From a virus, in IMG/VR virus record IMGVR_UViG_3300045988_163643, positions 1 to 64,000 of that record: DNA of 64,000 bases. One strand, given 5' to 3'. This document shows, piece by piece, positions 4,109-62,654 of this stretch (positions are counted from its first letter, which is position 1; each line of letters begins with the position of its first letter). The position numbers were made by a program, and so were the translations under genes. The notes under the pieces were generated by a model. The model had not been told where the DNA came from and made no database searches. It saw only the letters and a program-made list of their open reading frames with translations.

Positions 4109-4137
4109 ATTATACTAATACTATTATTAAAAGTCAA
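4109..4137 (-). promoter_or_regulatory. consensus promoter cassette
   Basis: -35 TTGACT 4132-4137, 17 nt, -10 TATAAT 4109-4114. Confidence 0.65.
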
Positions 4138-8002: not shown

Positions 8003-8031
8003 ATTATACTAATGTTCTTATTAAAAGTCAA
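8003..8031 (-). promoter_or_regulatory. consensus promoter cassette
   Basis: -35 TTGACT, 17 nt, -10 TATAAT, ATAAGTAAATGA. Confidence 0.65.
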
Positions 8032-8346: not shown

Positions 8347-11300
8347 TTAACTACATTTACTATATCCACAATTTAAACATGAATCACACCCATTAGTTTT
8401 TATTAATGATGGTTCTCCACATTCAGGACACACATTGCCTTTAAAATCTTCTTTTTTATCATTATTTTTATTTGGTTTTTCAACAATTTTTTCTATAACT
8501 TTTTCTTCTTTTCCTATCTCTTTTAAAAATGCTTTCATTTCTTTTAATATAGCCATACCACAATAACTACCATCTGATAAATGATTTCCTTTTCCTCTTT
8601 CTCTAGTAAAACTTGGACAAGCTGACACTCCTGCGAAGCTTTTCTCAATCATAGATAAGTCTCCACCGATTCTAAGTATAGATGACATTAATATGGCTAT
8701 ACATTGTAAGTTCTTTTCACATCCACCACTACCACTCTTAGTTATATAAACATCTTGTATAGTATTTTCACTAGGAGACCATCCTATGAATAGTTTAAGT
8801 TTTCCACAACCAATTATCAAATTACGTTTTACATAATAAGTATCTTCTGCTAAAGATTTCCATTGACCACGTTTTAATAATTCTTTTTCTTCATCTTCTT
8901 TTTCATCTGTAGTTGTAAGAATACCTTGTCTAGCACATCCATCACGATATATTGTTAATCCTTTTAATCCTTCTTTCCATGCTTCCATATACAATTCTTC
9001 AACTTCTTCTATTGTTGCTTCATTCGGTAAATTTATAGTTGAACTAATTGAAGCATCTATATGTTTTTGCCATACTCCTTGCATCTTAACTCTCATATGA
9101 GGATTTAAAGTTTGAGCAGTTACAAAGAAGTTAGGCAATTCTTCTTCTTCATTTAAACCATGAAGTTCCATATATTCTTTTGCTATTGGAGTGTATACTT
9201 TATAATAAACATCTCCCTCTTTATGAAGTGATTCAGTTTTTCTAGTATATGATAAGTTAAATATAGGTTCTATACCTCCACTTACTCCTATCATTGTAGA
9301 TATTGAACCTGTTGGTGCTATTGTCAATAACTGAGAATTTCTAAGTCCATATTTTTTTACTAATTCATAAGTTTCTACACTTGTATTATTTCTTAAAAAT
9401 TCAGAATCTAATATAGAAGTTTTATATTTAGGATAACAACCTTCTTCCTTAGAAAGTAATGCACTAACTTTTATTGATTCATTTGCTAACACCTTACCTA
9501 TAGTATCACATATTTCTATCGCTTCATCTGTGTCGTATTTTAATTCAAGTTTAATTAACATATCAGCTATACCCATAACGCCAATCCCTATTTGTCTATA
9601 ATCTCTTACAGTATCTCTTTGTATTTGTAATGGATGCAATGGTAAACCTTGGTCTAATACATCATTCATTGCTTTTACTATTGTATGAATGTCTTTTTTA
9701 AATGTACATATATCGAAAGTTTTATCGTTAACATAAGCTGATAAATTTACACTTCCCAATAAACAACTTCCACCATTTGGAAGAGGTTCTTCAGCGCCTC
9801 ACACTGTACGTTTCAACTATTTTTCGTACTGTGCGCTGGACTATCGCATGTGGTATCCTCCTTTATACCACCCCTCTCGCTTAGTCTCTCACGGTCAAGT
9901 TAACAACTCGTTCCGCCCTGTCACCATATAGTTAGGTTTCCAAGTCAATCAGAGAGGGTTTTAAATCCGCACATTATTTATTGGCTAACGGATTTACACC
10001 TGCATATTCAAATTCATCATCTTCACTTAATAAATTATAATCTTCTATTTTTGACCAATACAACACCCCTGGTTCCGCAAAGTCCCAGTTGTTTTTACAT
10101 AATAATTTAAATACTTCTTTAGCTTTAACAACTTTTTCCATTTTATCATTTTCTACTTCAAAATACAATGTCCAATCTTCATCATTTTCTACAGCTTTCA
10201 TAAAGTCATCGTTAACCCTTACTGATATATTTGCTTTAGTAACTTTATTTAAATCTGTTTTAATATTTATAAAATCTATAAGTTCAGGATGTGTACAATC
10301 TAATGATAACATTAATGCACCCAACATTTTTACTGTTGTTGGACTATATCTTACCTAATTATTTCATTAGGCTTGGATTCTATTGGGGTTATTAAGAAGA
10401 TATGTCTATCTTCTCCCCTAGTCTCTACACCTTCCTACCCAGTAGGCTCGGCTCGGTATTACACTACTCTTTAGTGCTTCCACCGATTTCTTCCAATTCA
10501 AGACGCAGTACATTTGCTTTTAAATACTTTCTTTGGAGTATGATAAAATCATCATTTTTTGGATATATATAATTTATAAATTTTAATACATCTTCTTTAT
10601 TTGAAAACTCTATTATATAACAATCTTCGTTAGATTTAGGTCTTATAGTTGATGATATTCCTATATTATTATATAACATTTTTTGAACACCTTCTAATAA
10701 GTGTAATTGTGATGTGAAAGATACTTTTTGCCATATTTTATTTCTATCTTTTCTTTTACCCCATGTTATGCAACCATCTGCATCAAAGAAACCTAATAAT
10801 AAGTATCTTTCTAAATCCTTTCTAACTCTAGGATAGTGTCTTTCTTTTTTTAATCGACCACTTGTAAATTTAAGTATATCATTTACTTTTCTTGAAGTTC
10901 TTGCTCTTGGAAATCTTCTTTTTTCTTTATTAAAAGTATTGTCTATACTTACATCAGATTCTATTATATTTGATATAAAGTCGATTATTTCTTTATCATT
11001 TTTTTCTACACTTATTTCTACTATATTTTTAGGTGTTATATTACTATCAGCCAATATAAAACCCAAAGCATATGCTTTTTCTTTTGTGTCTATTTTATTA
11101 AAATTATAATTACTTTTATGTTTTTTATATTTAGTATATTCATTTAAATTATATTTGTTTATCCAATAACCAACAGTACTTTTACCTATTCCTAATTCTT
11201 TAGCTATTGTTCTTGTTGATTTACCTTCTAATAATAATTTCAATAATTCATCTCTACTCATATTATCATACTCCTTATTTTTATTTTATATTTTATCTAC

Positions 11301-11786
11301 TCTATATATTTTCGATAAACAAAGCATTTAAAATTGTTAACGTCTTCCATTCTGCCCGATTGTAGACGTAACTTGAGAGAAGGTATCCATAAAACTACAA
11401 GCACCAGTAGTTTCTTTAGAAGCATTGTTTACTTTCATACCTTTAGCTCTTAATTTAGATATATCGACACCGCATCCACCACCGTAAGAAAATGTCCTAG
11501 CCAAATCACTACAAGTTTTATATATCGCTTCTATACTATCATCTGTTTCAAGTACATAACAGTTTGAATATGTTACTTTTTTACCATGTTTTTCTAATCC
11601 TCTATTGCTTAAAATTCTCCCACCAAACAAAAATTTCTTATCTCTAATTAATTGTTTAAGTTCTTCATCTTTATTTGATATTCTATCTAACCAATCTTCA
11701 AAACTTTCACCCTCAAATTGATATTTATTATGCCATATATCAATTCCTAACTGATTATCTTCTCCTAGCCATTCTTTTATATCCAT
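8347..11786 (-). CDS. nrdJ: class II (adenosylcobalamin-dependent) ribonucleotide reductase. Three exons: 11786-11340, 10321-9988, 9797-8347
   Basis: Exon ends join to ...TIGQNGRR|GALMLSL... and ...YAGVNP|C|AEEPLPNGGSCLLGSVNL...; C-terminal CPECG...CDSCLNCG Zn finger; joined length 743 aa. Confidence 0.85.
9798..9987 (-). ncRNA. ORF-less group I intron 2 of nrdJ (about 190 nt)
   Basis: Splits the Cys codon of NPCAEEPL (U|GC). The intron ends in G. Markedly GC-richer than its surroundings and has no ORF. Confidence 0.65.
10322..11339 (-). mobile_element. group I intron 1 of nrdJ carrying a LAGLIDADG homing endonuclease
   Basis: Interrupts GRR|GALM. The 5' exon ends in U and the intron ends in G. 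GC-richer non-coding core at 10322-10463. Confidence 0.7.
10464..11261 (-). CDS. LAGLIDADG homing endonuclease (double motif) with N-terminal HTH
   Basis: YALGFILADSNI and LLLGFFDADGCI motifs; N-terminal STRTIAKELGIGKSTVGYW. Confidence 0.85.
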   Translation of the reverse strand: MSRDELLKLLLEGKSTRTIAKELGIGKSTVGYWINKYNLNEYTKYKKHKSNYNFNKIDTKEKAYALGFILADSNITPKNIVEISVEKNDKEIIDFISNIIESDVSIDNTFNKEKRRFPRARTSRKVNDILKFTSGRLKKERHYPRVRKDLERYLLLGFFDADGCITWGKRKDRNKIWQKVSFTSQLHLLEGVQKMLYNNIGISSTIRPKSNEDCYIIEFSNKEDVLKFINYIYPKNDDFIILQRKYLKANVLRLELEEIGGSTKE

Positions 11787-11814
11787 ATTATCTCTCCTTT
11801 TAAGTTTAATATAA

Positions 11815-11830
11815 CCACTATATATTGTAG
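11815..11830. promoter_or_regulatory. NrdR-box-like site 1
   Basis: CCACTATATATTGTAG against the recalled consensus acaCwAtATaTwGtgt. Confidence 0.55.
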
Positions 11831-11845
11831 CATATAAAAAATAAG

Positions 11846-11861
11846 ACACTATATATTGTAT
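11846..11861. promoter_or_regulatory. NrdR-box-like site 2
   Basis: ACACTATATATTGTAT, 31 bp from site 1 (start to start). Confidence 0.55.
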
Positions 11862-12172: not shown

Positions 12173-13174
12173 TTATTTTGCTGAATTATCTGCATTATCT
12201 AAAGTCAATAATCTAATGTAATTTAAATATCCAATTTTTTTCACTAATTTTTCAGATGAACATTCTCTTTTTAACATCATATGATTATTTATTAACCAAG
12301 CTATATCCATAATATCTTTATCACAAAGTTTAGTATATTTTATTAATACATCTATAACATCATAAGCTGACATATTTTCATGATTATAATAATGACAATG
12401 TCTACCTTCTTCATCTTCTGTTTTTGCTATTGGTTTACTTATGTCATGCAACATAGAGGCTATTAATAAATTTTCATCAAGTTTACTAACTTCTTTAATT
12501 TTCTTATAACAAAAATACATATGTTTACTTAAAGATAAATTGTGCCATTTACTATCTTGTGGCATTTCTATGCAATTACTTAAGCCTAACTCAATCAATA
12601 AATTAATGTATTCTTTATAATCATCGCATTCAATAAATCTCTCTTTATCCATACCTAAGCCAAATTTTCTTCTATTGTCAATATATAATTTCATTCTATC
12701 ATCGTAATCTATAATAACTTCATCGAACCCTTCACATTTATGTGGTATTTCTATATTTTTATACATTCTTTCTACAACTTCATTAGGAACTTCTCTGTCT
12801 CTTGCTTCATTATCTATAATACAATTTGTTAAATTCTTATATTTAAATAAACAAATTGCTTTAGAATAATATTTTTTCATTTCTTTTAATAAGGCTCTTC
12901 TACGTTTGCTAGATATATTTGTAGCTTCATATATAGTCACATAACCATTAGATAAACTTTCTTTCGTTCTTTTCCTCATTATTTCAAATACTTCTTTATT
13001 TTTGCTTTGGTCTTCTATGTCATTTAATAATTCTTTTCTAATTTCATCTGATGATATAACTTCTATGTTTTTATTTTTATTTTCTTCTATATAATTTTTA
13101 ACCCAAGATGTTTTTCCACTTCCAGGTATACCAACTGTAATAATTAAGATTCCTTGCAATTTTTTTCCACCCAC
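12173..13174 (-). CDS. P-loop polynucleotide-kinase-like domain fused to an HD phosphohydrolase domain (RNA end-healing candidate)
   Basis: GIPGSGKTS Walker A at the N-terminus; C-terminal H...MLHDISKP...NH HD pattern; overlaps the RNA ligase gene. Confidence 0.7.
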   Translation of the reverse strand: MGGKKLQGILIITVGIPGSGKTSWVKNYIEENKNKNIEVISSDEIRKELLNDIEDQSKNKEVFEIMRKRTKESLSNGYVTIYEATNISSKRRRALLKEMKKYYSKAICLFKYKNLTNCIIDNEARDREVPNEVVERMYKNIEIPHKCEGFDEVIIDYDDRMKLYIDNRRKFGLGMDKERFIECDDYKEYINLLIELGLSNCIEMPQDSKWHNLSLSKHMYFCYKKIKEVSKLDENLLIASMLHDISKPIAKTEDEEGRHCHYYNHENMSAYDVIDVLIKYTKLCDKDIMDIAWLINNHMMLKRECSSEKLVKKIGYLNYIRLLTLDNADNSAK

Positions 13175-14379
13175 TTTCTTATTTCATTATATTTTTTATA
13201 CGCACCACTATGAGATTTAAGTATATTATATTTTCTTCCTAAATATTTCATTCTAACAAATTCTCTAATGTCACTATCTAAACAATTAATATATTTATGT
13301 AATTCTTTATCTGTTTGAAGATTACCTTTATTTCTTAATAATTCTATATTTATTCTATTTTTTGTTATTTTCTTATTCATTCCAACTATAAATTTTTCTA
13401 TGGTATCTATTGTGTTTTTATTTGTTTCTTTTAGTGAGGACGACATATTAGCATATAAATCATCTATTGTACCATCTGCATATGCTTTTATTATTGTGTT
13501 AGCAGAACTTAATTTATCATTTAGTCTATGTAATTGTAGATAGTCTTCACATTTAAGTTTTATTTTATGACCGTCTATATTTAATACAAACCCTTCTCCA
13601 TCGTTTATTGTCATTTTATTTAAACGTTCTAAAACTTCTTCTAAGGTATCACATTGATAAATCTTACAACAAGGAACATTAAATTTTATTGATGTTTTTT
13701 TAATGTATTTATAATCATATTCTTTACCATCTAAAACGCTTCTCATACCTATAAGATATAGACCCTTTTCTTTGGAATAGTCATAAGGAATAACATGCTT
13801 ATCTTTTTCTGATATATATTCAAATATAAATGTTATCATTGGACAACTTTTTATCATCTGTTTATGATTATCTGTTAACATTTCAAATCCTTCTTTTAAT
13901 CTAAATGAATTATTTATATCTAAAGATATACTTCCACTACCAACTATTTTTCCGTTATAATACCTATATGATTGCATACTACCATCTAATTTTTCAGATA
14001 CTTCAAACATATCGCAGTTGTTTATTTCTTCTTCTATAATATCTTTCATATTTTCTTTTACTTCATTCATATTAAAAAATTTTCTAAATGGTGTTAATAC
14101 CATTTCTTCATTTTTTATATCAAAAACTAAACTTCTTGCTTCTCTCAGTGGAGAGTTTTCATCTTCCCACATATTTCTTCCCATTTCATGTAATTTATAT
14201 CTAATTAATACTAAGTCATCTTTTTGATTAATTTGTACTTCATCAAATATTTCATTATATGGAATTCCTTCTTCTTTCATTGTATTAATCATGCCATTGA
14301 AATTTACATAATCTCCAAAATACTTAATATAATCATGTTTTAACTTAATACATTCATCAAACATTTTATTCCAACTCAT
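13144..14379 (-). CDS. ATP-dependent RNA ligase (Rnl1-like nucleotidyltransferase)
   Basis: Motif I SEKLDGSM (KxDG), EGFVL (motif IV), KIKLK (motif V). Confidence 0.75.
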   Translation of the reverse strand: MSWNKMFDECIKLKHDYIKYFGDYVNFNGMINTMKEEGIPYNEIFDEVQINQKDDLVLIRYKLHEMGRNMWEDENSPLREARSLVFDIKNEEMVLTPFRKFFNMNEVKENMKDIIEEEINNCDMFEVSEKLDGSMQSYRYYNGKIVGSGSISLDINNSFRLKEGFEMLTDNHKQMIKSCPMITFIFEYISEKDKHVIPYDYSKEKGLYLIGMRSVLDGKEYDYKYIKKTSIKFNVPCCKIYQCDTLEEVLERLNKMTINDGEGFVLNIDGHKIKLKCEDYLQLHRLNDKLSSANTIIKAYADGTIDDLYANMSSSLKETNKNTIDTIEKFIVGMNKKITKNRINIELLRNKGNLQTDKELHKYINCLDSDIREFVRMKYLGRKYNILKSHSGAYKKYNEIRKWVEKNCKES

Positions 14380-14423
14380 ATCATCATCTCCTTAAAAATA
14401 ATAGCTTGTGTATCTTTAATTAT

Positions 14424-14452
14424 ATTATACACAAACTATTATTGAAAGTCAA
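14424..14452 (-). promoter_or_regulatory. consensus promoter cassette
   Basis: -35 TTGACT, 17 nt, -10 TATAAT. Confidence 0.65.
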
Positions 14453-14468
14453 TTATTTTTTATTATTT

Positions 14469-15443
14469 TTATTCAGTATCTTCATCATATTTACTTAATA
14501 CTTCACCTAATGTTTTAGATAATTCATCTTTATCTACTTCTTCATCTACTTTATTTTCTTCTTCATCCTCAGTATCTTCTTCATCTTCTTTGTGGCAATC
14601 ACAATTTCCGTCACATTCACAGTTTCCACCACATTTGCATTCTTTTTTATCTTCCATTTCCTCATCTCCTTCATAATTTTCTTCAACTTCATCGTCAACT
14701 TCTTCTTCATCATCGTTTAATCCTAAAATTTCAGATAAACCTGTATGTAATAAAGTTATCGCTAATTCTCCTTCTTCCATATCCATTAATTGAGCAAAGG
14801 TTTGAACTGCTAAAGCAGTTGCTTGGTTAAATCTTTCATCTAATTCGTCCCAATCAGGTTCACAACCTTCATATCCATAATTTATTATTCCTAACTCTAT
14901 TGCTTCCTCATAATCTATCCAATCATAACATAATCTTGCTTTTTCAACTCTTTCTTTAGTCATATTGGTATTATCGTAAATTATTTGTTCAAATTGTTCA
15001 TCGGTTTTTGCAGAAAATTCTACTGTTCTTCTTTGTTCTTCTATGTATCCCATATTATATGAACTACCACCATGATTCATAAATCTAGCTAATTTACCAG
15101 CAGTTCTCTTCATTCCATTAACATATATTATAAACGCCATTGAATATGCAAAATTACATCGAGTATTAACTTGTATTCCCATTTCCTTCATTTCATCCAT
15201 TCTATGGATTATAGCAGTACCTGAACTAGTGCAACCACCATAACTACTTATTTCTATTGTTATAGGAGGAAAAGGTTGTAAAAATATAGGGTTGATTAAA
15301 GAAGATTCAGTTTTATATTGTTCATATGCTTCTATTATTTTATCAGTTTCTTCATAAAAATATTTAAGTGTTTCTACATTTATTTCGCCAACTATTCTTA
15401 CAGTAGTATTCATTTCTTTTTCATTTTTATTTTCCATATTCAC
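14469..15443 (-). CDS. ClpP/S14-family serine protease-like protein with acidic, Cys-rich C-terminal tail
   Basis: ISSYGGCTSSGTAI, catalytic-Ser context FAYSMAF, His context FMNHGG; tail KECKCGGNCECDGNCDCH. Confidence 0.65.
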   Translation of the reverse strand: MNMENKNEKEMNTTVRIVGEINVETLKYFYEETDKIIEAYEQYKTESSLINPIFLQPFPPITIEISSYGGCTSSGTAIIHRMDEMKEMGIQVNTRCNFAYSMAFIIYVNGMKRTAGKLARFMNHGGSSYNMGYIEEQRRTVEFSAKTDEQFEQIIYDNTNMTKERVEKARLCYDWIDYEEAIELGIINYGYEGCEPDWDELDERFNQATALAVQTFAQLMDMEEGELAITLLHTGLSEILGLNDDEEEVDDEVEENYEGDEEMEDKKECKCGGNCECDGNCDCHKEDEEDTEDEEENKVDEEVDKDELSKTLGEVLSKYDEDTE

Positions 15444-19844: not shown

Positions 19845-19873
19845 ATTATACTACTACTCTTATTAAAAGTCAA
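19845..19873 (-). promoter_or_regulatory. consensus promoter cassette
   Basis: -35 TTGACT, 17 nt, -10 TATAAT. Confidence 0.65.
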
Positions 19874-42436: not shown

Positions 42437-42465
42437 ATTATACTATTGCTCTTATTAAAAGTCAA
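42437..42465 (-). promoter_or_regulatory. consensus promoter cassette
   Basis: -35 TTGACT, 17 nt, -10 TATAAT. Confidence 0.65.
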
Positions 42466-44910: not shown

Positions 44911-46128
44911 CTACAATAAATCTACCTTGAATGGATGTAACCCTACACCCTCTATTCCATCAGCAAATGCTTTAGGAAATACTTTTTTAATAATCTGATA
45001 AGAACCATTTACATCAGCATTTATTTTTATACCTTTATTACTTACAAATAATCCCCTATGTCTTCTTCTATTCTTATTATAATTCTCCTTAATAGGCAAT
45101 TCATTATCTAAAAATGAAGTCCCACTTGTATAACTTTCTTCAGTAATAATAACTTGTATTCCAAATTCTTCTGCTTTATATTGTACCTTCTGAATAAAAC
45201 TATAATAAGGTATACTAATAAAATTTTGATTAACTTTTTTACTCATTTTACTATTTTGTTTCCAATTCTTATTATTACCTATGATAATAGTATTAATTTC
45301 ATTATTTCTACAATAATCAACTACAAATCTACTAGCTTTATGAATATAATCTTCAACTTTATTATTTCTCTTAAATGTTAATTCTCTCATTCTATTAGTA
45401 TAATCTAACTTATTCATTTTCTTTGCTATTGATTTATAATAAGCTATTTGCTTATTATAATATTGATTTATTGATTTTAGACCCTTACCATTTATTACTA
45501 ATGGGATTAATTCACAATTATTAGTTATAGTTACAAAGTTATCTAAACCTAAATCAATACCTATATATCTATCATTATCAATCAATTCTTTAACATCATC
45601 AATTTTATAAACTACTTCAGCAACAATATATTTGTCTTTAGGTATAAATCTCACTTGTTGTAAATTATTTACTTTAGATTTCAAATAAAAACCTTTGAAT
45701 GATTTAGGAAATTTAATTATACCTTTATTAATTTTACAATTTACATAAGTTAATATTAGAATATTTCTATCATTTTTAGATTTATACTTAGGTAATTTAG
45801 GTCTACCTAAGTATTTATTTGGGTTTTTATTATAATCTTTTATACTAGCGAAAAATGATTTCCAATTTTTATCTAATAATCTTAAACACTGTTGGCTTGT
45901 TGCAGAGGATGGCATATTTCTATAATCAAAATCTTTACCTTCTTGTTTTAATATTTTGTCTAATTCATTATATCTTAACCATTTATTGTTATTTATAAAT
46001 TCTTGTCTAATGATATAATTCGCATAATTATATAGATTTTTAGATTTATAACAAAATTCATCTAGTAGACTATAATATTTATTATTTTGTTTAATAATAT
46101 GTTTTTCAACTCTATTGATTTTTATCAC
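44911..46128 (-). mobile_element. tnpB: solo TnpB (IS200/IS605 OrfB-type RuvC-like RNA-guided nuclease family); no tnpA nearby
   Basis: GIDLGLDNFVT (RuvC-I), ITEESYTSGTS (RuvC-II), RGLF...INADVNGSYQI (RuvC-III); GTG start after AAAGGAGG. Confidence 0.8.
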
Positions 46129-46314: not shown

Positions 46315-46782
46315 CTAATTAATAATAGTTCCTTCTTTAGCATCAATAGTCATAAAAGGTCTACCTTGATTCATGTCATAACATCTTAGTTTTACTTCAG
46401 TTGTCACATCATATAATTTCTTTATATCACTCACTAACGACTCCATGTCTTTTGTAAATCCAGTATCAACTAAAATTCTTTGTCTTTGAGTTTTGCTTAT
46501 ATCATATAAATCCAACTCTTTATCTACAATTGATATTATCACACAATCTTTTTCATAATGTGAATTTACATCAACAATGTATTTTGTCTTTGGAAACTTA
46601 TCATTTAATATAGATTTCACTATTGAATTTGAAATATCATTAAATGTTTTTGTCTTTTGTTGTTCTACCCTTTGTTCTTCAATTTGTGTCTTTTGTTCTA
46701 AGTTAACTTTGTGTTGACATATCGCATATCCACAACCCATTGATACTATTAAACAAGTAGGTATAACAACTTTTTTATTCAT
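46315..46782 (-). CDS. membrane-anchored or secreted protein
   Basis: N-terminal hydrophobic segment VVIPTCLIVSMGCGYAIC; the ATG has no adjacent SD. Confidence 0.55.
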   Translation of the reverse strand: MNKKVVIPTCLIVSMGCGYAICQHKVNLEQKTQIEEQRVEQQKTKTFNDISNSIVKSILNDKFPKTKYIVDVNSHYEKDCVIISIVDKELDLYDISKTQRQRILVDTGFTKDMESLVSDIKKLYDVTTEVKLRCYDMNQGRPFMTIDAKEGTIIN

Positions 46783-46898: not shown

Positions 46899-46927
46899 AT
46901 TATACTATTCCTATTATCAAAAGTCAA
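46899..46927 (-). promoter_or_regulatory. consensus promoter cassette
   Basis: -35 TTGACT, 17 nt, -10 TATAAT. Confidence 0.65.
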
Positions 46928-46939
46928 CATTTTTTATTT

Positions 46940-48589
46940 TTAAAATTTATTAGCTTTCCATTCTTCCCTCAATTCTTTTAATAAGTCTTTAAATTCGTCT
47001 TCTTCATGATAATTATTAAAATCCATATCAAAATCTATTTCATTTTGTTCGTTTTGAACAACTTTTCTACCTAATATTTCGTTTTCAACTTCTCGCATAA
47101 TTTCTAATTTGTCTTTCTTAAATTTATTTGTTTTAATTTTATCTAAATTTTTATAATCATGATTTTGTATAAGAAAAACTATTTCACTTATATCGTCCAA
47201 TTTATATCCTAATCTTAATAACACTTCCATACTTAAATAAGCAGATATTTTACTATTACCTCTTAAATCATTGAAACATAATGGTTTTCCACAATCATGC
47301 AATGCAATTGCCATTAATGTATTTTTATTTTTAGTTAATTTAGCACCTTCTTTTAATGATTTATACAAATGATTATTTAAATAATAATTTCCATCTTTAT
47401 CTATATGTTCATCACTCATATGAAAACCTATATTATTTTTTAATCCTACTTTTTTTAATAATCTATTAAATTCTATAAAATCAATGTTAGTAAACTTATT
47501 ATCAATATTGTATGTAATTTCATTATTGGAATTATCTACATATCTTATCTCATCAAATCCTTCATTTATATCAGGCAAATTAAAAAATCTTAATTTTTTA
47601 TAAATATACTCATAATCTTTATTATAATTCACTATACAATCATCAAAATTTTTATATATAAACACACCAATTATTTTAGATGCTAAACAACCTAATTTAT
47701 CGATTAATGATTTTCTATTGTGCTTATTCATATTACACATATCAATTATCACGTTTTTACATTGCATTAAAAGTTCACTAGCTTCAGAAATCATAGTTTG
47801 AAATAAATTTTCTTCTTTAACTCCTTGTTTTCTTAATTTATTAGCAGATATAATAAATATAGAGTCAAATTCAACTTCTAATTGTTTACAATATAATGTT
47901 TTACCCGAATTAGGAAGTCCTGTTAATATAAATAATTGTCTTTTATTAGCATAAACATTAGATAACTTTTTTAACGCCTTTTGCTCTAATCTAGTAACGT
48001 GACTTCTATCTACACCTAATAAAGTAGCTACTTCTTGTTGAGTAGGAAAATTTTCTCCATATCTTAAATTTATAACTTTTTGTTCAGCGTTAGTTAATAC
48101 TTCTTTCATACTTTCACGTATTTCTTTATTTAGAAGATTATTTTCAGCAGATTCTTGAACATTTATTTTTTCATCAAAAAGACAATCTTCTATAACAACC
48201 GAGTCATCATCTTTTTTGGTTTCTATTGTGGTATTCATACTACACTCTTTATATTTAGCTCTTTTCACATAATTAGCAGTACGCAAAACCATTCTTAGTT
48301 CATTAGAAACACACGTTGCTAAATATGTACTCCAATTTGTATCTCCCAATATATCATATGTGTCTACAGCTTTTAACAACCCTATCATTCCAGTTTGTAT
48401 AAAATCTTCCCTATCTTGTTCATTCAATACAAATTTATTAACTATCTTAGATACTAATTTTGTATTATGTAAAATTATGTTATCCCTAATTTCTTTTGAC
48501 CCAGTTTCATTATATTCTTTTAACAAATCCATCATTTCATCTTTAGTTAAATTTTTATATTCAAACAAGTCTTTATTCAATTTAATCAT
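46940..48589 (-). CDS. sigma-70-family factor fused to a P-loop kinase + HD phosphohydrolase module
   Basis: Region 2 DREDFIQTGMIGLLKAVDTYD; region 4 TQQEVATLLGVDRSHVTRLEQKALKKL; then GLPNSGKT and ALHDCGKP...IQNHDY. Start placed at the Met after AAAGGGG. Confidence 0.75.
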   Translation of the reverse strand: MIKLNKDLFEYKNLTKDEMMDLLKEYNETGSKEIRDNIILHNTKLVSKIVNKFVLNEQDREDFIQTGMIGLLKAVDTYDILGDTNWSTYLATCVSNELRMVLRTANYVKRAKYKECSMNTTIETKKDDDSVVIEDCLFDEKINVQESAENNLLNKEIRESMKEVLTNAEQKVINLRYGENFPTQQEVATLLGVDRSHVTRLEQKALKKLSNVYANKRQLFILTGLPNSGKTLYCKQLEVEFDSIFIISANKLRKQGVKEENLFQTMISEASELLMQCKNVIIDMCNMNKHNRKSLIDKLGCLASKIIGVFIYKNFDDCIVNYNKDYEYIYKKLRFFNLPDINEGFDEIRYVDNSNNEITYNIDNKFTNIDFIEFNRLLKKVGLKNNIGFHMSDEHIDKDGNYYLNNHLYKSLKEGAKLTKNKNTLMAIALHDCGKPLCFNDLRGNSKISAYLSMEVLLRLGYKLDDISEIVFLIQNHDYKNLDKIKTNKFKKDKLEIMREVENEILGRKVVQNEQNEIDFDMDFNNYHEEDEFKDLLKELREEWKANKF

Positions 48590-48680: not shown

Positions 48681-50288
48681 TTAATTTTCATAGAAAACTT
48701 TATATAATTTATATGTTTCTATTAAATCACGTTTACTAATTATTTCCATTGGACTATGCATGCCTAATGTAGACACTCCAGCATCCATTGTCTCCATACC
48801 TCTTATTCCAAAGAACATAGCAACCGTTCCCCCACCGCCTTCACTAACTTTAACTGTATCAACTTGATATTTCACATCATTATCAATACATAAATCTTTT
48901 ATATATTCTCTCATTTCTATACTTGCATCATTTCCTCTTTTTAATCCAGTAAATGGCACTAAGGCAACACCATTGCCACATACTGCTTTTGCACTATCTT
49001 CAAAATGACTACTATAATTACTATCAAATCCACCAGTTACATCTGCACTAATTACCTTTGTATTTCTCATAAATTCTCTAGCTAATAACATATTTCCATT
49101 TGCTAAAGTAAGGAATATATCATCTATAAATTGAGTTTCAGCACCACTCATTTGTCCACTTCCAGTTTCTTCATAAGCAGTAAATAAAGCTATCTTTGTT
49201 ATTTTATTAGGTTTACTAGTTAATATAGCTTCTAATTCAGCATAAGCACAACTCTTATCATCATGTCCATATCCCATTAATAAATCTTTATCTAATCCCA
49301 TTTCTAATGTTTTAAAATAAGGTACAAAACTTAAGTCAGCTAATTCAAAATTCTCTTTTGTTATTCCATATTCTTTTTCTAACATTTCAAATAGTTCTTC
49401 TTTATTTCCATTACTCATTCTTACTAATAATTTATCATAAGATAAGTCTTTCACTTCTTTTCTACCTTTTAGGTGAGGTAATAAACTAGTTATAGAAAAT
49501 AAATGTCCTTTTTCTCCAGTATTTATATATTTTATTTCATCATCTACTTTTATTTTCCCAACCATTACAAATGGTCTATCTAACCATAATTGTGGTATTA
49601 TTCCACCATATGGTTGTGTTTTTATAAAAGTACCATCATCATTAGATACAATTGGATTACCTACTATAACATCTAATCTAGGACTATCAATATGACTTAC
49701 TATTAAATTAGCACCTTTTGATATGTCCTCGCCTATTTCTATTAAAGCTATCAATTTATCTCTAAATTCAAATATAACCTTATCTCCTACATTAAAGTAT
49801 TTTGAATGATTATAAGATTTATATCCTACATCTTCTGCTTTATCCTTTATATATTTTAATACTTGTGTTTCATGCAATCCTTCTTCTAATAAATATTTAT
49901 ATTCATCTATAAAATTATCTTCTTCATTATTATCTTGTGTTTTATACAATATTTTTCCTAATAAATATTTTACTTCTTCATCAATTATTTCTTTTAAGGT
50001 ATCATATTTTATATCAGGTGAACATTTTGAATATACAACATTATCTCTAAATATTATTTTTGTTCTTGATTCTTTAGCTACAATAGTACGAGTGTTTAAG
50101 TCATAAATCTTTTTCCATTGAGTTGGTAATTCTTTTCCATTCACCCAATGATAACCTAATTCTTCTAATGATATTAACACTTGTTCAATAATTTCTTTAT
50201 CATTGTTGACTTCAATTATAATTTGTTTATCATTTTTTTCACTTAATTCTTCTATTAAATTTGTTAGTCTTTTTATACTCATATTCAT
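48681..50288 (-). CDS. M18-family (aspartyl-type) aminopeptidase with ~130-aa N-terminal extension
   Basis: SHIDSPRLD, GYGHDDKSC, YEETGSG, GGGGTVA, GMHSPMEI. Confidence 0.7.
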   Translation of the reverse strand: MNMSIKRLTNLIEELSEKNDKQIIIEVNNDKEIIEQVLISLEELGYHWVNGKELPTQWKKIYDLNTRTIVAKESRTKIIFRDNVVYSKCSPDIKYDTLKEIIDEEVKYLLGKILYKTQDNNEEDNFIDEYKYLLEEGLHETQVLKYIKDKAEDVGYKSYNHSKYFNVGDKVIFEFRDKLIALIEIGEDISKGANLIVSHIDSPRLDVIVGNPIVSNDDGTFIKTQPYGGIIPQLWLDRPFVMVGKIKVDDEIKYINTGEKGHLFSITSLLPHLKGRKEVKDLSYDKLLVRMSNGNKEELFEMLEKEYGITKENFELADLSFVPYFKTLEMGLDKDLLMGYGHDDKSCAYAELEAILTSKPNKITKIALFTAYEETGSGQMSGAETQFIDDIFLTLANGNMLLAREFMRNTKVISADVTGGFDSNYSSHFEDSAKAVCGNGVALVPFTGLKRGNDASIEMREYIKDLCIDNDVKYQVDTVKVSEGGGGTVAMFFGIRGMETMDAGVSTLGMHSPMEIISKRDLIETYKLYKVFYEN

Positions 50289-50315: not shown

Positions 50316-50344
50316 ATTATACTATTATTCTTATTAAAAGTCAA
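50316..50344 (-). promoter_or_regulatory. consensus promoter cassette
   Basis: -35 TTGACT, 17 nt, -10 TATAAT. Confidence 0.65.
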
Positions 50345-62625: not shown

Positions 62626-62654
62626 ATTATACTATTATTCTTATTAAAAGTCAA
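62626..62654 (-). promoter_or_regulatory. consensus promoter cassette
   Basis: -35 TTGACT, 17 nt, -10 TATAAT. Confidence 0.65.

Follow-up and report, generated by a model that had tools for sequence, protein, structure and literature searches.

Identification of a phage gene joining a sigma factor to a kinase-HD module

We examined a 64,000-nucleotide stretch of viral DNA (positions 1 to 64,000 of the IMG/VR record IMGVR_UViG_3300045988_163643, hereafter referred to as the window) and focused on one minus-strand gene, at 46940-48589, in which a sigma-70-family transcription factor is joined to a P-loop kinase-like domain and an HD-like domain. The gene belongs to a ~200-kb gut phage. A preliminary description of this DNA had reported a single uninterrupted open reading frame (ORF) here, and translation of the minus strand bore this out, together with all of the motifs quoted for it (DREDFIQTGMIGLLKAVDTYD, TQQEVATLLGVDRSHVTRLEQKALKKL, GLPNSGKT at 47897-47920, ALHDCGKP and IQNHDY). 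The encoded protein consists, in order, of a sigma portion (amino acids (aa) 10-215), an 8-residue linker, the P-loop kinase-like domain, the HD-like domain and a 44-aa acidic tail. These features are located as follows, with residues numbered throughout according to the 549-aa version that starts at the ATG at 48589.

46940..48589, minus strand: whole fusion gene, 549 aa counted from ATG 48589, stop codon at 46940-46942
48275..48475, minus strand: sigma region 2, aa 39-105 (Pfam PF04542 Sigma70_r2, 39.2 bits against a cut-off of 24)
47963..48100, minus strand: sigma region 4 with the region 4.2 helix-turn-helix, aa 164-209 (Pfam PF04545 Sigma70_r4, 36.7 bits against a cut-off of 24.1)
47939..47962, minus strand: linker SNVYANKR, 8 residues; beta-strand 1 of the kinase-like domain starts at aa 218 in the AlphaFold2 (AF2) model
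47540..47938, minus strand: P-loop polynucleotide-kinase-like domain, aa 218-350, as predicted from AF2, Foldseek and a table of motif residues
47897-47920, minus strand: Walker A motif GLPNSGKT (K230, T231), within the kinase-like domain
47840-47842, minus strand: Asn250, at the general-base position of the kinase-like domain, whose lid is shortened
47075..47407, minus strand: HD-like helical domain, aa 395-505, with H407, H431-D432, K435 and H477 kept
46943..47074, minus strand: acidic C-terminal tail, 44 aa, net charge -6, with a predicted terminal helix; specific to the fusion

The mechanical ORF runs further upstream, to 48691 (583 aa). When the 5' region was aligned with three relatives, the ATG at 48589 was found to be GTG in L001 and L011 and GGG in L009, and the upstream 34-aa extension was broken by an indel. 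The TTG at 48580 was invariant across the aligned variants and is preceded, 9 nucleotides (nt) upstream, by the Shine-Dalgarno sequence AAAGGGG. Because this TTG and its Shine-Dalgarno sequence are kept and neither the ATG nor the extension is conserved, translation most likely starts at TTG 48580, giving a protein of 546 aa.

The Walker A half had been said to follow region 4.2 at a distance of about 15 residues. It does follow closely, but the gap to beta-strand 1 of the kinase-like domain is only the 8 residues SNVYANKR. This octapeptide corresponds to the natural C-terminal tail of stand-alone sigma relatives, so that essentially no linker was added in the fusion. No in-frame ATG, GTG or TTG that could serve as an internal translation start at the junction occurs between aa 200 and 265. 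At the other end of the protein, the acidic tail was absent from all compared stand-alone homologues of the C-terminal half, that is, proteins with a polynucleotide kinase (Pnk) and an HD domain (Pnk-HD). In databases the fusion protein is named 'sporulation-specific sigma factor' or 'DNA directed RNA polymerase subunit'; annotators should be aware that these labels mention the sigma/RNA polymerase part only.

Recurrence of the fusion and selection on its segments

Clustered at 90% identity, the fusion protein falls into one group of 63 distinct sequences. These come from independent assemblies (ENA, Logan and NCBI, with JGI as a further source), on contigs that reach 199,683 bp; one member, DAL24019.1, is called 'RNA polymerase sporulation-specific sigma factor' and 'DNA directed RNA polymerase subunit' by its sources. 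The sequence is abundant in metagenomes of the human gut, Hadza samples among them, and the gene was recovered from seven independent contigs. The junction (...KALKKLSNVYANKRQLFILTGLPNSGK...) was invariant in 16 aligned variants (90-100% identity), and an ORF of 549 codons at 25% guanine plus cytosine (G+C) is far beyond chance. Since the same fused ORF recurs in 63 sequences from independent assemblies, a missed stop or frameshift at the junction is effectively excluded even without raw reads.

Ratios of nonsynonymous to synonymous substitution rates (dN/dS) were estimated by the Nei-Gojobori method from small counts. Against a 90% variant, they were 0.25 for the sigma segment, 0.025 for the kinase segment, 0.34 for the middle and HD segments and 0.26 for the tail, and against a 97% variant all segments fell at 0.10-0.17. 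The gene as a whole gave 0.14-0.24, with the kinase domain (0.025-0.10) as its most constrained part. Purifying selection is clear for both halves and strongest for the P-loop domain. The opposite view, that the gene is a mis-assembly, contains a missed stop or is a recently fused pseudogene in decay, can draw on a single point, namely its narrow distribution within one 90%-identity cluster. Given 63 variants from independent assemblies and samples that share the open frame, an identical junction in all 16 aligned and dN/dS well under 1 in every segment, we give this view almost no credence. Between the window and L009, dS in the kinase segment (47540-47938) was 0.12, lower than in the sigma (0.27) and tail (0.23) segments, which could reflect recombination or nucleotide-level constraint near the junction.

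The N-terminal half resembles sporulation sigma factors

The N-terminal half had been described as a sigma-70-type factor, and profile searches, which might have refuted this, upheld it: regions 2 and 4 both scored above the Pfam gathering scores, and the superfamily model TIGR02937 gave 89.5 bits against a cut-off of 42.9. The NCBIfam SigK subfamily model matched at 1.3e-40, with aa 13-215 covering model positions 31-230 of 235, and the SigE model matched at 8e-27. The best solved relatives were sigmaF (1l0o, 1e-18), to residues 11-122 of which the region 2 stretch aligns, and sigmaK (8vjl); PHROG sigma families likewise matched. By these profile matches, the N-terminal half is a complete sigma-70-family factor with the full sigma2-sigma3-sigma4 architecture, of the sporulation type (group 3-like). 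All equivalog cut-offs were missed widely (SigK, 122 vs 298.65 and 139 vs 252; SigE, 94 vs 339; SigF, 83 vs 321; SigG, 75 vs 372), and we therefore assign no orthology to any host sporulation sigma.

The closest relatives of the sigma half among the listed matches were stand-alone sigmas of 212-214 aa with ~50% identity. These stop 6-10 residues past the last helix of region 4.2, whereas the fusion runs 335 residues further. No second sigma was found in the 64-kb window by phmmer. The exhaustive sigma search also matched P0025, P0033, P0042, P0070, P0094, P0107, P0110, P0124, P0136 and others, which form a sizeable sigma family of ~390-550 aa. Their C-terminal extensions contain 1-3 region-4-like repeats (TIYEYF..YTKEEID..LTEEEK.LI.LRYG.DL.NP), and the same proteins also carry a conserved terminal domain (..LKLGYIDGKYFS..IA.FL..); Pfam detects only the sigma regions in them.

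The C-terminal half is related to a stand-alone end-healing enzyme of the same phage

The kinase-HD half had been likened to a second ORF in the window, at 12173-13174, that lies beside an RNA ligase gene. Direct comparison agreed with this (29% identity over 295 aa, E 3e-21). The two genes concerned are as follows.

12173..13174, minus strand: stand-alone Pnk-HD paralog with all tabulated motif residues intact (AAA_33 5.6e-17, borderline HD)
13144..14379, minus strand: Rnl1-type RNA ligase gene, overlapping the start of the paralog (Pfam RNA_lig_T4_1, 67.4 bits, 2e-18)

The paralog matched PSTK (5e-11), the kinase domain of C. thermocellum Pnkp (8.5e-9) and T4 Pnk (3.6e-5), and the fused C-terminal half shares 24-26% identity with Pnk-HD proteins of Bacillus phages. 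A cassette of ligase followed by Pnk-HD is annotated in large Bacillus phages, often with ClpP and DNA ligase genes nearby, and Lysinibacillus phage LC76P1 encodes a Pnk-HD homologue in unannotated surroundings. The fusion gene itself is flanked by an M18 aminopeptidase gene and an ORF of 155 aa, with no RNA ligase gene adjoining. Judged from these matches, the C-terminal half arose by duplication of the Pnk-HD enzyme that the phage itself encodes for tRNA/RNA end healing, and has since diverged. In the window, a putative ClpP-like protease ORF at 14469-15443 (minus strand), recognized by eye and by synteny, completes a cassette at 12173-15443 with the ligase and the Pnk-HD gene, syntenic with blocks of ligase, Pnk-HD, ClpP and DNA ligase genes in large Bacillus phages. 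The Pnk-HD proteins of the window also match phrog_6931, a PHROG family of 'unknown function' in which the kinase lies at profile positions 182-343; judged from this profile, the family appears to have the permuted HD-then-Pnk order of Runella HD-Pnk and could be annotated as an end-healing enzyme.

Direct recognition of the fused C-terminal half by Pfam was marginal, with KTI12 at 22.8-24.7 bits against a cut-off of 22, AAA_33 below its cut-off, and HD at 16.5-17.6 bits against a cut-off of 22 (the stand-alone paralog itself reaches 21.3); phmmer against the PDB returned noise only. The assignment of this half therefore derives from the paralog matches and from structure prediction, a check proposed in the preliminary description, rather than from direct PDB search. 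AF2 modelled the kinase domain with a predicted local distance difference test score (pLDDT) of 80-95, and Foldseek matched this model to PSTK (1e-6), mammalian PNKP (6e-6), the fungal Trl1 kinase (1.5e-5) and CthPnk (4.5e-5); further matches were polynucleotide kinases of phages and full-length phage proteins of the Pnk-HD-like type. The predicted structure thus confirmed a Pnk/PSTK-like kinase fold in the fused copy. For the HD part, modelled with low confidence, the best Foldseek matches were HD domains (CCA-adding enzyme 3wfp, probability 0.98, E 0.34; HD hydrolase 2pq7; E 0.3-0.4), and a profile of the region gave only weak PhnZ and Cas3-HD matches in the PDB (E ~0.1). In the model, an HD fold of the fused copy is supported but not proven.

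Catalytic residues are substituted or deleted in the fused module

We compared 19 motif positions between five fusion variants and 125 stand-alone Pnk-HD proteins (120 gut-phage sequences and 5 from Bacillus or Lysinibacillus phages, the latter only ~30% identical to the former). All 19 positions were invariant or nearly so among the stand-alone proteins, and 8 of them were substituted or deleted in all five fusion variants. The fusion keeps K230 and T231 of Walker A and the acceptor-phosphate R253, equivalents of the Walker A Lys and Ser/Thr and the acceptor-phosphate Arg (T4 R38, Cth R41) of CthPnk and T4 Pnk, as well as D283, H407, H431-D432, K435 and H477. At the general-base position (T4 D35, Cth D38), Asp was present in 125/125 stand-alone proteins and replaced by Asn in 5/5 fusion variants (D250N). 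The (D/E)-A-T-N motif retains its Asp (D283), and its Thr is replaced by Cys in all five (T285C). In the lid, whose arginines (T4 R126; Cth R120 and R123) contact the beta/gamma phosphate of the NTP, the first Arg is changed to Lys (R324K, 5/5 variants), and a deletion of four residues has removed the second lid Arg together with the Val-Pro that lines the acceptor-nucleoside pocket.

The HD site carries H403Y, H445N/E446S and D502E. The loss of H445 is independent of the alignment because no His occurs anywhere between HD and QNH in the fusion. Within the H...HD...D metal-ligand set, H407 and H431-D432 are present, the terminal position is occupied by Glu502, and the extra family histidines H403 and H445 are lost; the lost histidine of the 'HE' pair aligns, in the weak matches mentioned above (E ~0.1), with a metal-ligand His of binuclear HD proteins (PhnZ, Cas3-type).

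In T4 Pnk, Lys15, Ser16, Asp35, Arg38, Asp85 and Arg126 are essential (PMC2831316). The engineered CthPnk-D38N mutant binds GTP-Mg and a 5'-OH oligonucleotide and does not catalyse the reaction, and Arg120 and Arg123 of CthPnk grip the gamma-phosphate (PMC3902929). The fusion has the same Asp-to-Asn change as CthPnk-D38N, with the P-loop and the acceptor Arg intact in both, but unlike that mutant it is further missing the lid arginines and the Thr, residues that contribute to holding the gamma-phosphate and the acceptor. We therefore predict that canonical polynucleotide-kinase chemistry has been lost and that the HD site is crippled in the fusion.

These changes bear directly on the earlier suggestion that the C-terminal half is a working end-processing enzyme, a kinase and/or phosphoesterase with perhaps altered chemistry, that is brought to RNA polymerase and acts on nascent transcripts, tRNAs or nucleotide signals at promoters. 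Such a role would be in keeping with the retained P-loop Lys/Thr, D283, R253, HD dyad, K435 and H477, with the very low dN/dS of the kinase domain (0.025-0.10), and with the 8-residue tether, which would put the module near emerging RNA since region 4 sits on the beta-flap at the RNA exit channel. It is at odds with the uniform replacement of the general-base Asp, given that D38N kills CthPnk chemistry and that Asp35 and Arg126 are essential in T4 Pnk, with the deletion of the lid Arg and Val-Pro segment, and with the replacement of the family-invariant HD residues H403, H445 and D502 and the adjacent E446. Moreover, nascent RNA carries a 5'-triphosphate and is no Pnk substrate, and no ligase lies beside the fusion gene. 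Because the general base, the lid segment and HD-site residues are changed or gone, RNA end-healing on RNA polymerase is unlikely; placing a repair activity there is not supported with 8 of 19 motif positions altered, and we consider a working enzyme of any kind an unlikely account of the gene.

The fusion is an accessory gene of one phage sub-lineage

A word-indexed search with the full protein returned only its own cluster. When 1.84 billion cluster representatives were searched exhaustively with phmmer, 15,164 matches were obtained; of the best 150, 149 were sigma-only and the remaining one was a 124-aa fragment of the fusion protein itself. None of the 27 matches of at least 340 aa had a phmmer match to the C-terminal half or the paralog, a Pfam scan of 19 of these 27 gave no kinase or HD domain, and inspection by eye of 19 long matches (a partly different set) found no Walker A or HD-family motif. 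The extensions of the long sigma matches were region-4-like repeats or, in P0155, a SIR2 domain. A profile search with the C-terminal half and the paralog gave 206 clusters, the best 120 of which held no fusion other than the query's own cluster; in GenBank phages either half was present but never both, and IMG/VR scans for the fusion gave no match. A sigma-Pnk fusion, as the preliminary description noted, is not known to have been described; consistent with this, the database check it had proposed found none outside the gene's own 90%-identity cluster, and none appeared in the literature searched. As a possible source of a fusion from adjacent genes, we considered the locus of the nearest stand-alone sigma (P0017, 49% identity) and rejected it: the phage context is unrelated and no kinase-HD gene lies downstream, so that it provides no 'split' ancestor locus.

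The upstream neighbour of the fusion gene is conserved in the window and in all five loci that reach upstream (L001-L004 and L009).

48681..50288, minus strand: M18 aminopeptidase gene

Eight IMG/VR contigs (L012-L019, up to 204 kb) encode this aminopeptidase at 85-91% identity and have no fusion gene within 6 kb; between the aminopeptidase gene and a conserved alpha-amylase gene they carry other genes, e.g., those for methyltransferases and a pentapeptide-repeat protein. Since these relatives bear the aminopeptidase and not the fusion, the latter can be regarded, on gene content, as an accessory gene of one sub-lineage that lies in a hypervariable island. The closest counterparts of the DnaE-type polymerase encoded in the window come from Clostridioides and Clostridium phages (63% identity for Clostridioides difficile phages phiCD211 and phiCDIF1296T, 55% for C. 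botulinum phage c-st), which suggests a Clostridial host.

This setting is relevant to the idea that the protein manipulates the host, as an accessory factor that mimics a sporulation sigma, perturbs sporulation or dormancy, or sequesters core RNA polymerase, with the C-terminal half serving localisation, oligomerisation or stability, and is not a promoter-specifying sigma for phage genes. The best matches of the sigma half are indeed the sporulation sigmas SigK, SigE, SigF and SigG, phage-borne homologues of sporulation sigmas change host sporulation (PMC9429907, PMC10294663), the phage is akin to Clostridial phages, and the gene belongs to a variable island, being missing beside the same aminopeptidase in eight relatives. 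However, the protein scores far under the SigK, SigE, SigF and SigG equivalog cut-offs and is the orthologue of none of them, and the strong conservation of the P-loop would be left unexplained. We therefore regard host manipulation as rather improbable.

Several other features of the window were recorded. The next ORF after the fusion, both in the window and in L001-L004, encodes 155 aa (46315-46782, minus strand). A sigmaA-type promoter of its own precedes it, its N-terminus resembles a lipoprotein signal (…LIVSMGC…), and it gave no Pfam match. Downstream of it, at 44911-46128 (minus strand), is a gene of the TnpB / IS605 OrfB family with OrfB_IS605 and Cas12f1-like TNB domains; TnpB is elsewhere or absent at that place in related contigs (L001 vs L002-L004) and hence mobile within the phage population. 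The window has 24.9% G+C and nearly all of its long ORFs lie on the minus strand. A ribonucleotide-reductase-like gene recognized by eye is split into three minus-strand pieces (11337-11849, 9974-10327 and 8347-9759, within 8347-11849), amid which a 265-aa ORF (10464-11261) contains a helix-turn-helix and a putative homing-endonuclease-like sequence, and this arrangement suggests interruption by an intron or intein. Rfam gave no match over the whole window, including no group I or II intron in the reductase-like region, and a tRNA scan found none.

Promoter context and a slippery heptamer at the junction

Upstream of the aminopeptidase gene, and just after a terminator-like hairpin, we found a strong sigmaA-type promoter-like site.

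50316..50344, minus strand: promoter-like site TTGACT-17-TATAAT

No sigmaA-type site was found between the aminopeptidase and fusion genes, and another sigmaA-like site lies immediately past the fusion stop codon. Because the nearest sigmaA-type site upstream of the fusion precedes the aminopeptidase gene, the two genes probably form a two-gene operon read by the host sigmaA holoenzyme. A host-sigmaA promoter would be the pattern expected of a phage sigma that later redirects core polymerase. Across the window, the promoter-like motif TTGACTTTTAATAAG-N-ATAGTATAAT occurs in 35 minus-strand copies vs 2.7 expected and precedes most genes. It comprises sigmaA-type -35 and -10 elements, a conserved spacer and a TAG ahead of the -10, and conservation of the spacer suggests that host sigmaA is not all that recognizes the motif. 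Examples of the motif are as follows.

4109-4137, 8003-8031, 19845-19873, 42437-42465, 46899-46927, 50316-50344 and 62626-62654, all minus strand: copies of the promoter-like motif

The 3' end of the sigma-coding part contains a further element.

47966..47972, minus strand: in-frame dnaX-type slippery heptamer A_AAA_AAG (codons TTA AAA AAG, L206-K207-K208)

A programmed -1 frameshift at this heptamer would give two products, a stand-alone sigma of ~210 aa (...KALKK-VI) and the full-length fusion, as for the tau and gamma products of dnaX. The product ratio would set the balance of free and module-bearing sigma, an arrangement that fits either reading of the C-terminal half. The heptamer is set in the frame prone to shifting, exactly where region 4.2 ends, and the -1 frame reaches a stop after Val-Ile, two codons on; the shorter product would have the natural length of stand-alone sigma relatives, which stop 6-10 residues past the equivalent helix. 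In-frame A_AAA_AAG is also rare in the window (5 in 18,325 codons vs 64 in any frame, with ~21 expected in frame). The heptamer is conserved in L001, L009 and L011, but this is no evidence either way, as only 6 of the surrounding 180 nt vary. Furthermore, no downstream stimulatory structure was found (fold z-score +0.63), the sole upstream Shine-Dalgarno-like sequence, AAGG, is 4 nt away, not properly spaced and lost in L009, ten X_XXY_YYZ heptamers occur in the gene overall, and this one was picked out post hoc. On balance, frameshifting at the junction seems doubtful.

Putative regulatory role of the fused module

Sigma region 4 binds both the -35 element and the tip of the beta-flap, where the RNA exit channel opens. 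A domain that begins 8 residues after region 4 must therefore lie against the beta-flap/-35 interface. Our leading proposal, held tentatively and resting on the residue comparison and on analogy, is that the fused module has become a non-catalytic, ligand-binding domain that regulates or tethers the sigma factor in cis and has lost its end-healing chemistry. Such a module would no longer phosphorylate 5'-OH ends or heal 2',3'-phosphate ends, and it may bind nucleoside triphosphate (NTP) and/or an RNA 5' end, by analogy with CthPnk-D38N, a mutant that forms the Michaelis complex. Packed against region 4, it could gate the access of sigma to the beta-flap and the -35 element, as an autoinhibition relieved by ligand; alternatively, it might contact emerging RNA or the DNA upstream, or anchor the holoenzyme to some ligand or partner. 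Read from the apparent host-sigmaA-type promoter, the gene would be expressed early, after which the sigma would redirect the host core RNA polymerase to another, putative promoter class.

Several points weigh against this proposal. The P-loop, D283 and HD dyad, kept under strong constraint, would equally fit a changed catalysis, such as an NTPase or another phosphotransfer or phosphohydrolase activity, and we infer the regulatory logic of the module by analogy. The HD assignment of the fused copy is weak, with a Pfam score under the cut-off and a Foldseek E of 0.34, and AF2 confidence is low outside the kinase domain (pLDDT ~60 in the HD region and <50 in the tail). Finally, the fusion is an accessory gene rather than a core regulator, as close relatives lack it beside the same aminopeptidase.

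A more specific version, which we consider quite unlikely and which is likewise built on analogy, is that the 'dead' module serves RNA-end recognition, binding 5' RNA ends and/or NTP and thereby coupling phage transcription to the RNA state of the cell. It might detect tRNAs broken by host anticodon-nuclease defences and switch the sigma on or off, or it might, at the exit channel beside region 4, capture nascent RNA by its 5' end and control sigma retention or promoter escape. If a dnaX-like frameshift at the junction yielded two sigma isoforms, it could then set the ratio of sensing to non-sensing sigma.

Comparison with known systems

Fused-domain sigmas, phage sigmas and Pnk-HD repair enzymes are each known, and their combination was not found in the databases or literature searched. 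Nor did these hold any counterpart of a repair module turned apparent pseudoenzyme on a sigma factor. Phage group 3 sigmas (SigF/SigG-like proteins of Bacillus phages and gut-phage homologues; PMC9429907, PMC10294663) resemble the N-terminal half of the fusion in being phage-borne and in matching SigK, SigE, SigF and SigG, and P0017, the stand-alone relative with examined context, sits among phage genes. They differ in ending 6-10 residues past region 4.2, where the fusion adds 335 residues. The stand-alone phage Pnk-HD proteins next to an Rnl1-type ligase (12173-13174 in the window; Bacillus phages Kirov, FADO, PK-3 and vB_BcoS-136) are homologous to the C-terminal half and have the same domain order and spacing, whereas the fusion has 8 of 19 motif residues altered, no adjoining ligase, an extra acidic tail and the N-terminal sigma. 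Runella HD-Pnk has the permuted, opposite domain order to phage Pnk-HD according to Munir and Shuman (2017), as cited in PMC6097658.

Joining of a sigma-70 module to a non-transcription domain is also seen in MzaA of the MZA anti-phage system (NCBIfam NF041931, PADLOC PDLC02203) and in the SIR2-sigma protein P0155. In both, however, the other domains precede the sigma module, which is C-terminal, and none of these partners is related to Pnk/HD, so that the likeness is confined to the sigma region. The SIR2_2 domain of P0155 (910 aa) spans aa 119-239 and its complete sigma aa 711-901; as an enzyme-sigma fusion, this protein is possibly related to defence.

Sigma factors are usually under trans control by anti-sigma factors, and cis-acting fused domains are known mainly for bacterial extracytoplasmic function (ECF) sigmas. 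In ECF41 (SnoaL-like), ECF42 (TPR), ECF44 and others, a non-sigma domain follows right after region 4, as in the fusion (PMC3426412, PMC8999054), and in these families, with ECF41 as the precedent (PMC3426412), the extra domain modulates the sigma in cis without a separate anti-sigma factor. These are bacterial two-domain ECF (group 4) sigmas with extensions other than P-loop/HD, whereas the sigma of the fusion is of a group 3-like kind and comes from a phage. It has gained a P-loop/HD module through duplication of the phage's own RNA-repair gene, with catalytic residues stripped and constraint kept tight. If the module binds NTPs or RNA ends, it would offer a compact natural case of a repair enzyme recycled as a sensor and a direct link of RNA damage or nucleotide status to promoter selection. 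Set beside the ECF sigmas, a repair enzyme acting as a pseudoenzyme sensor would, if the sensor reading is true, represent a new mode of sigma regulation.

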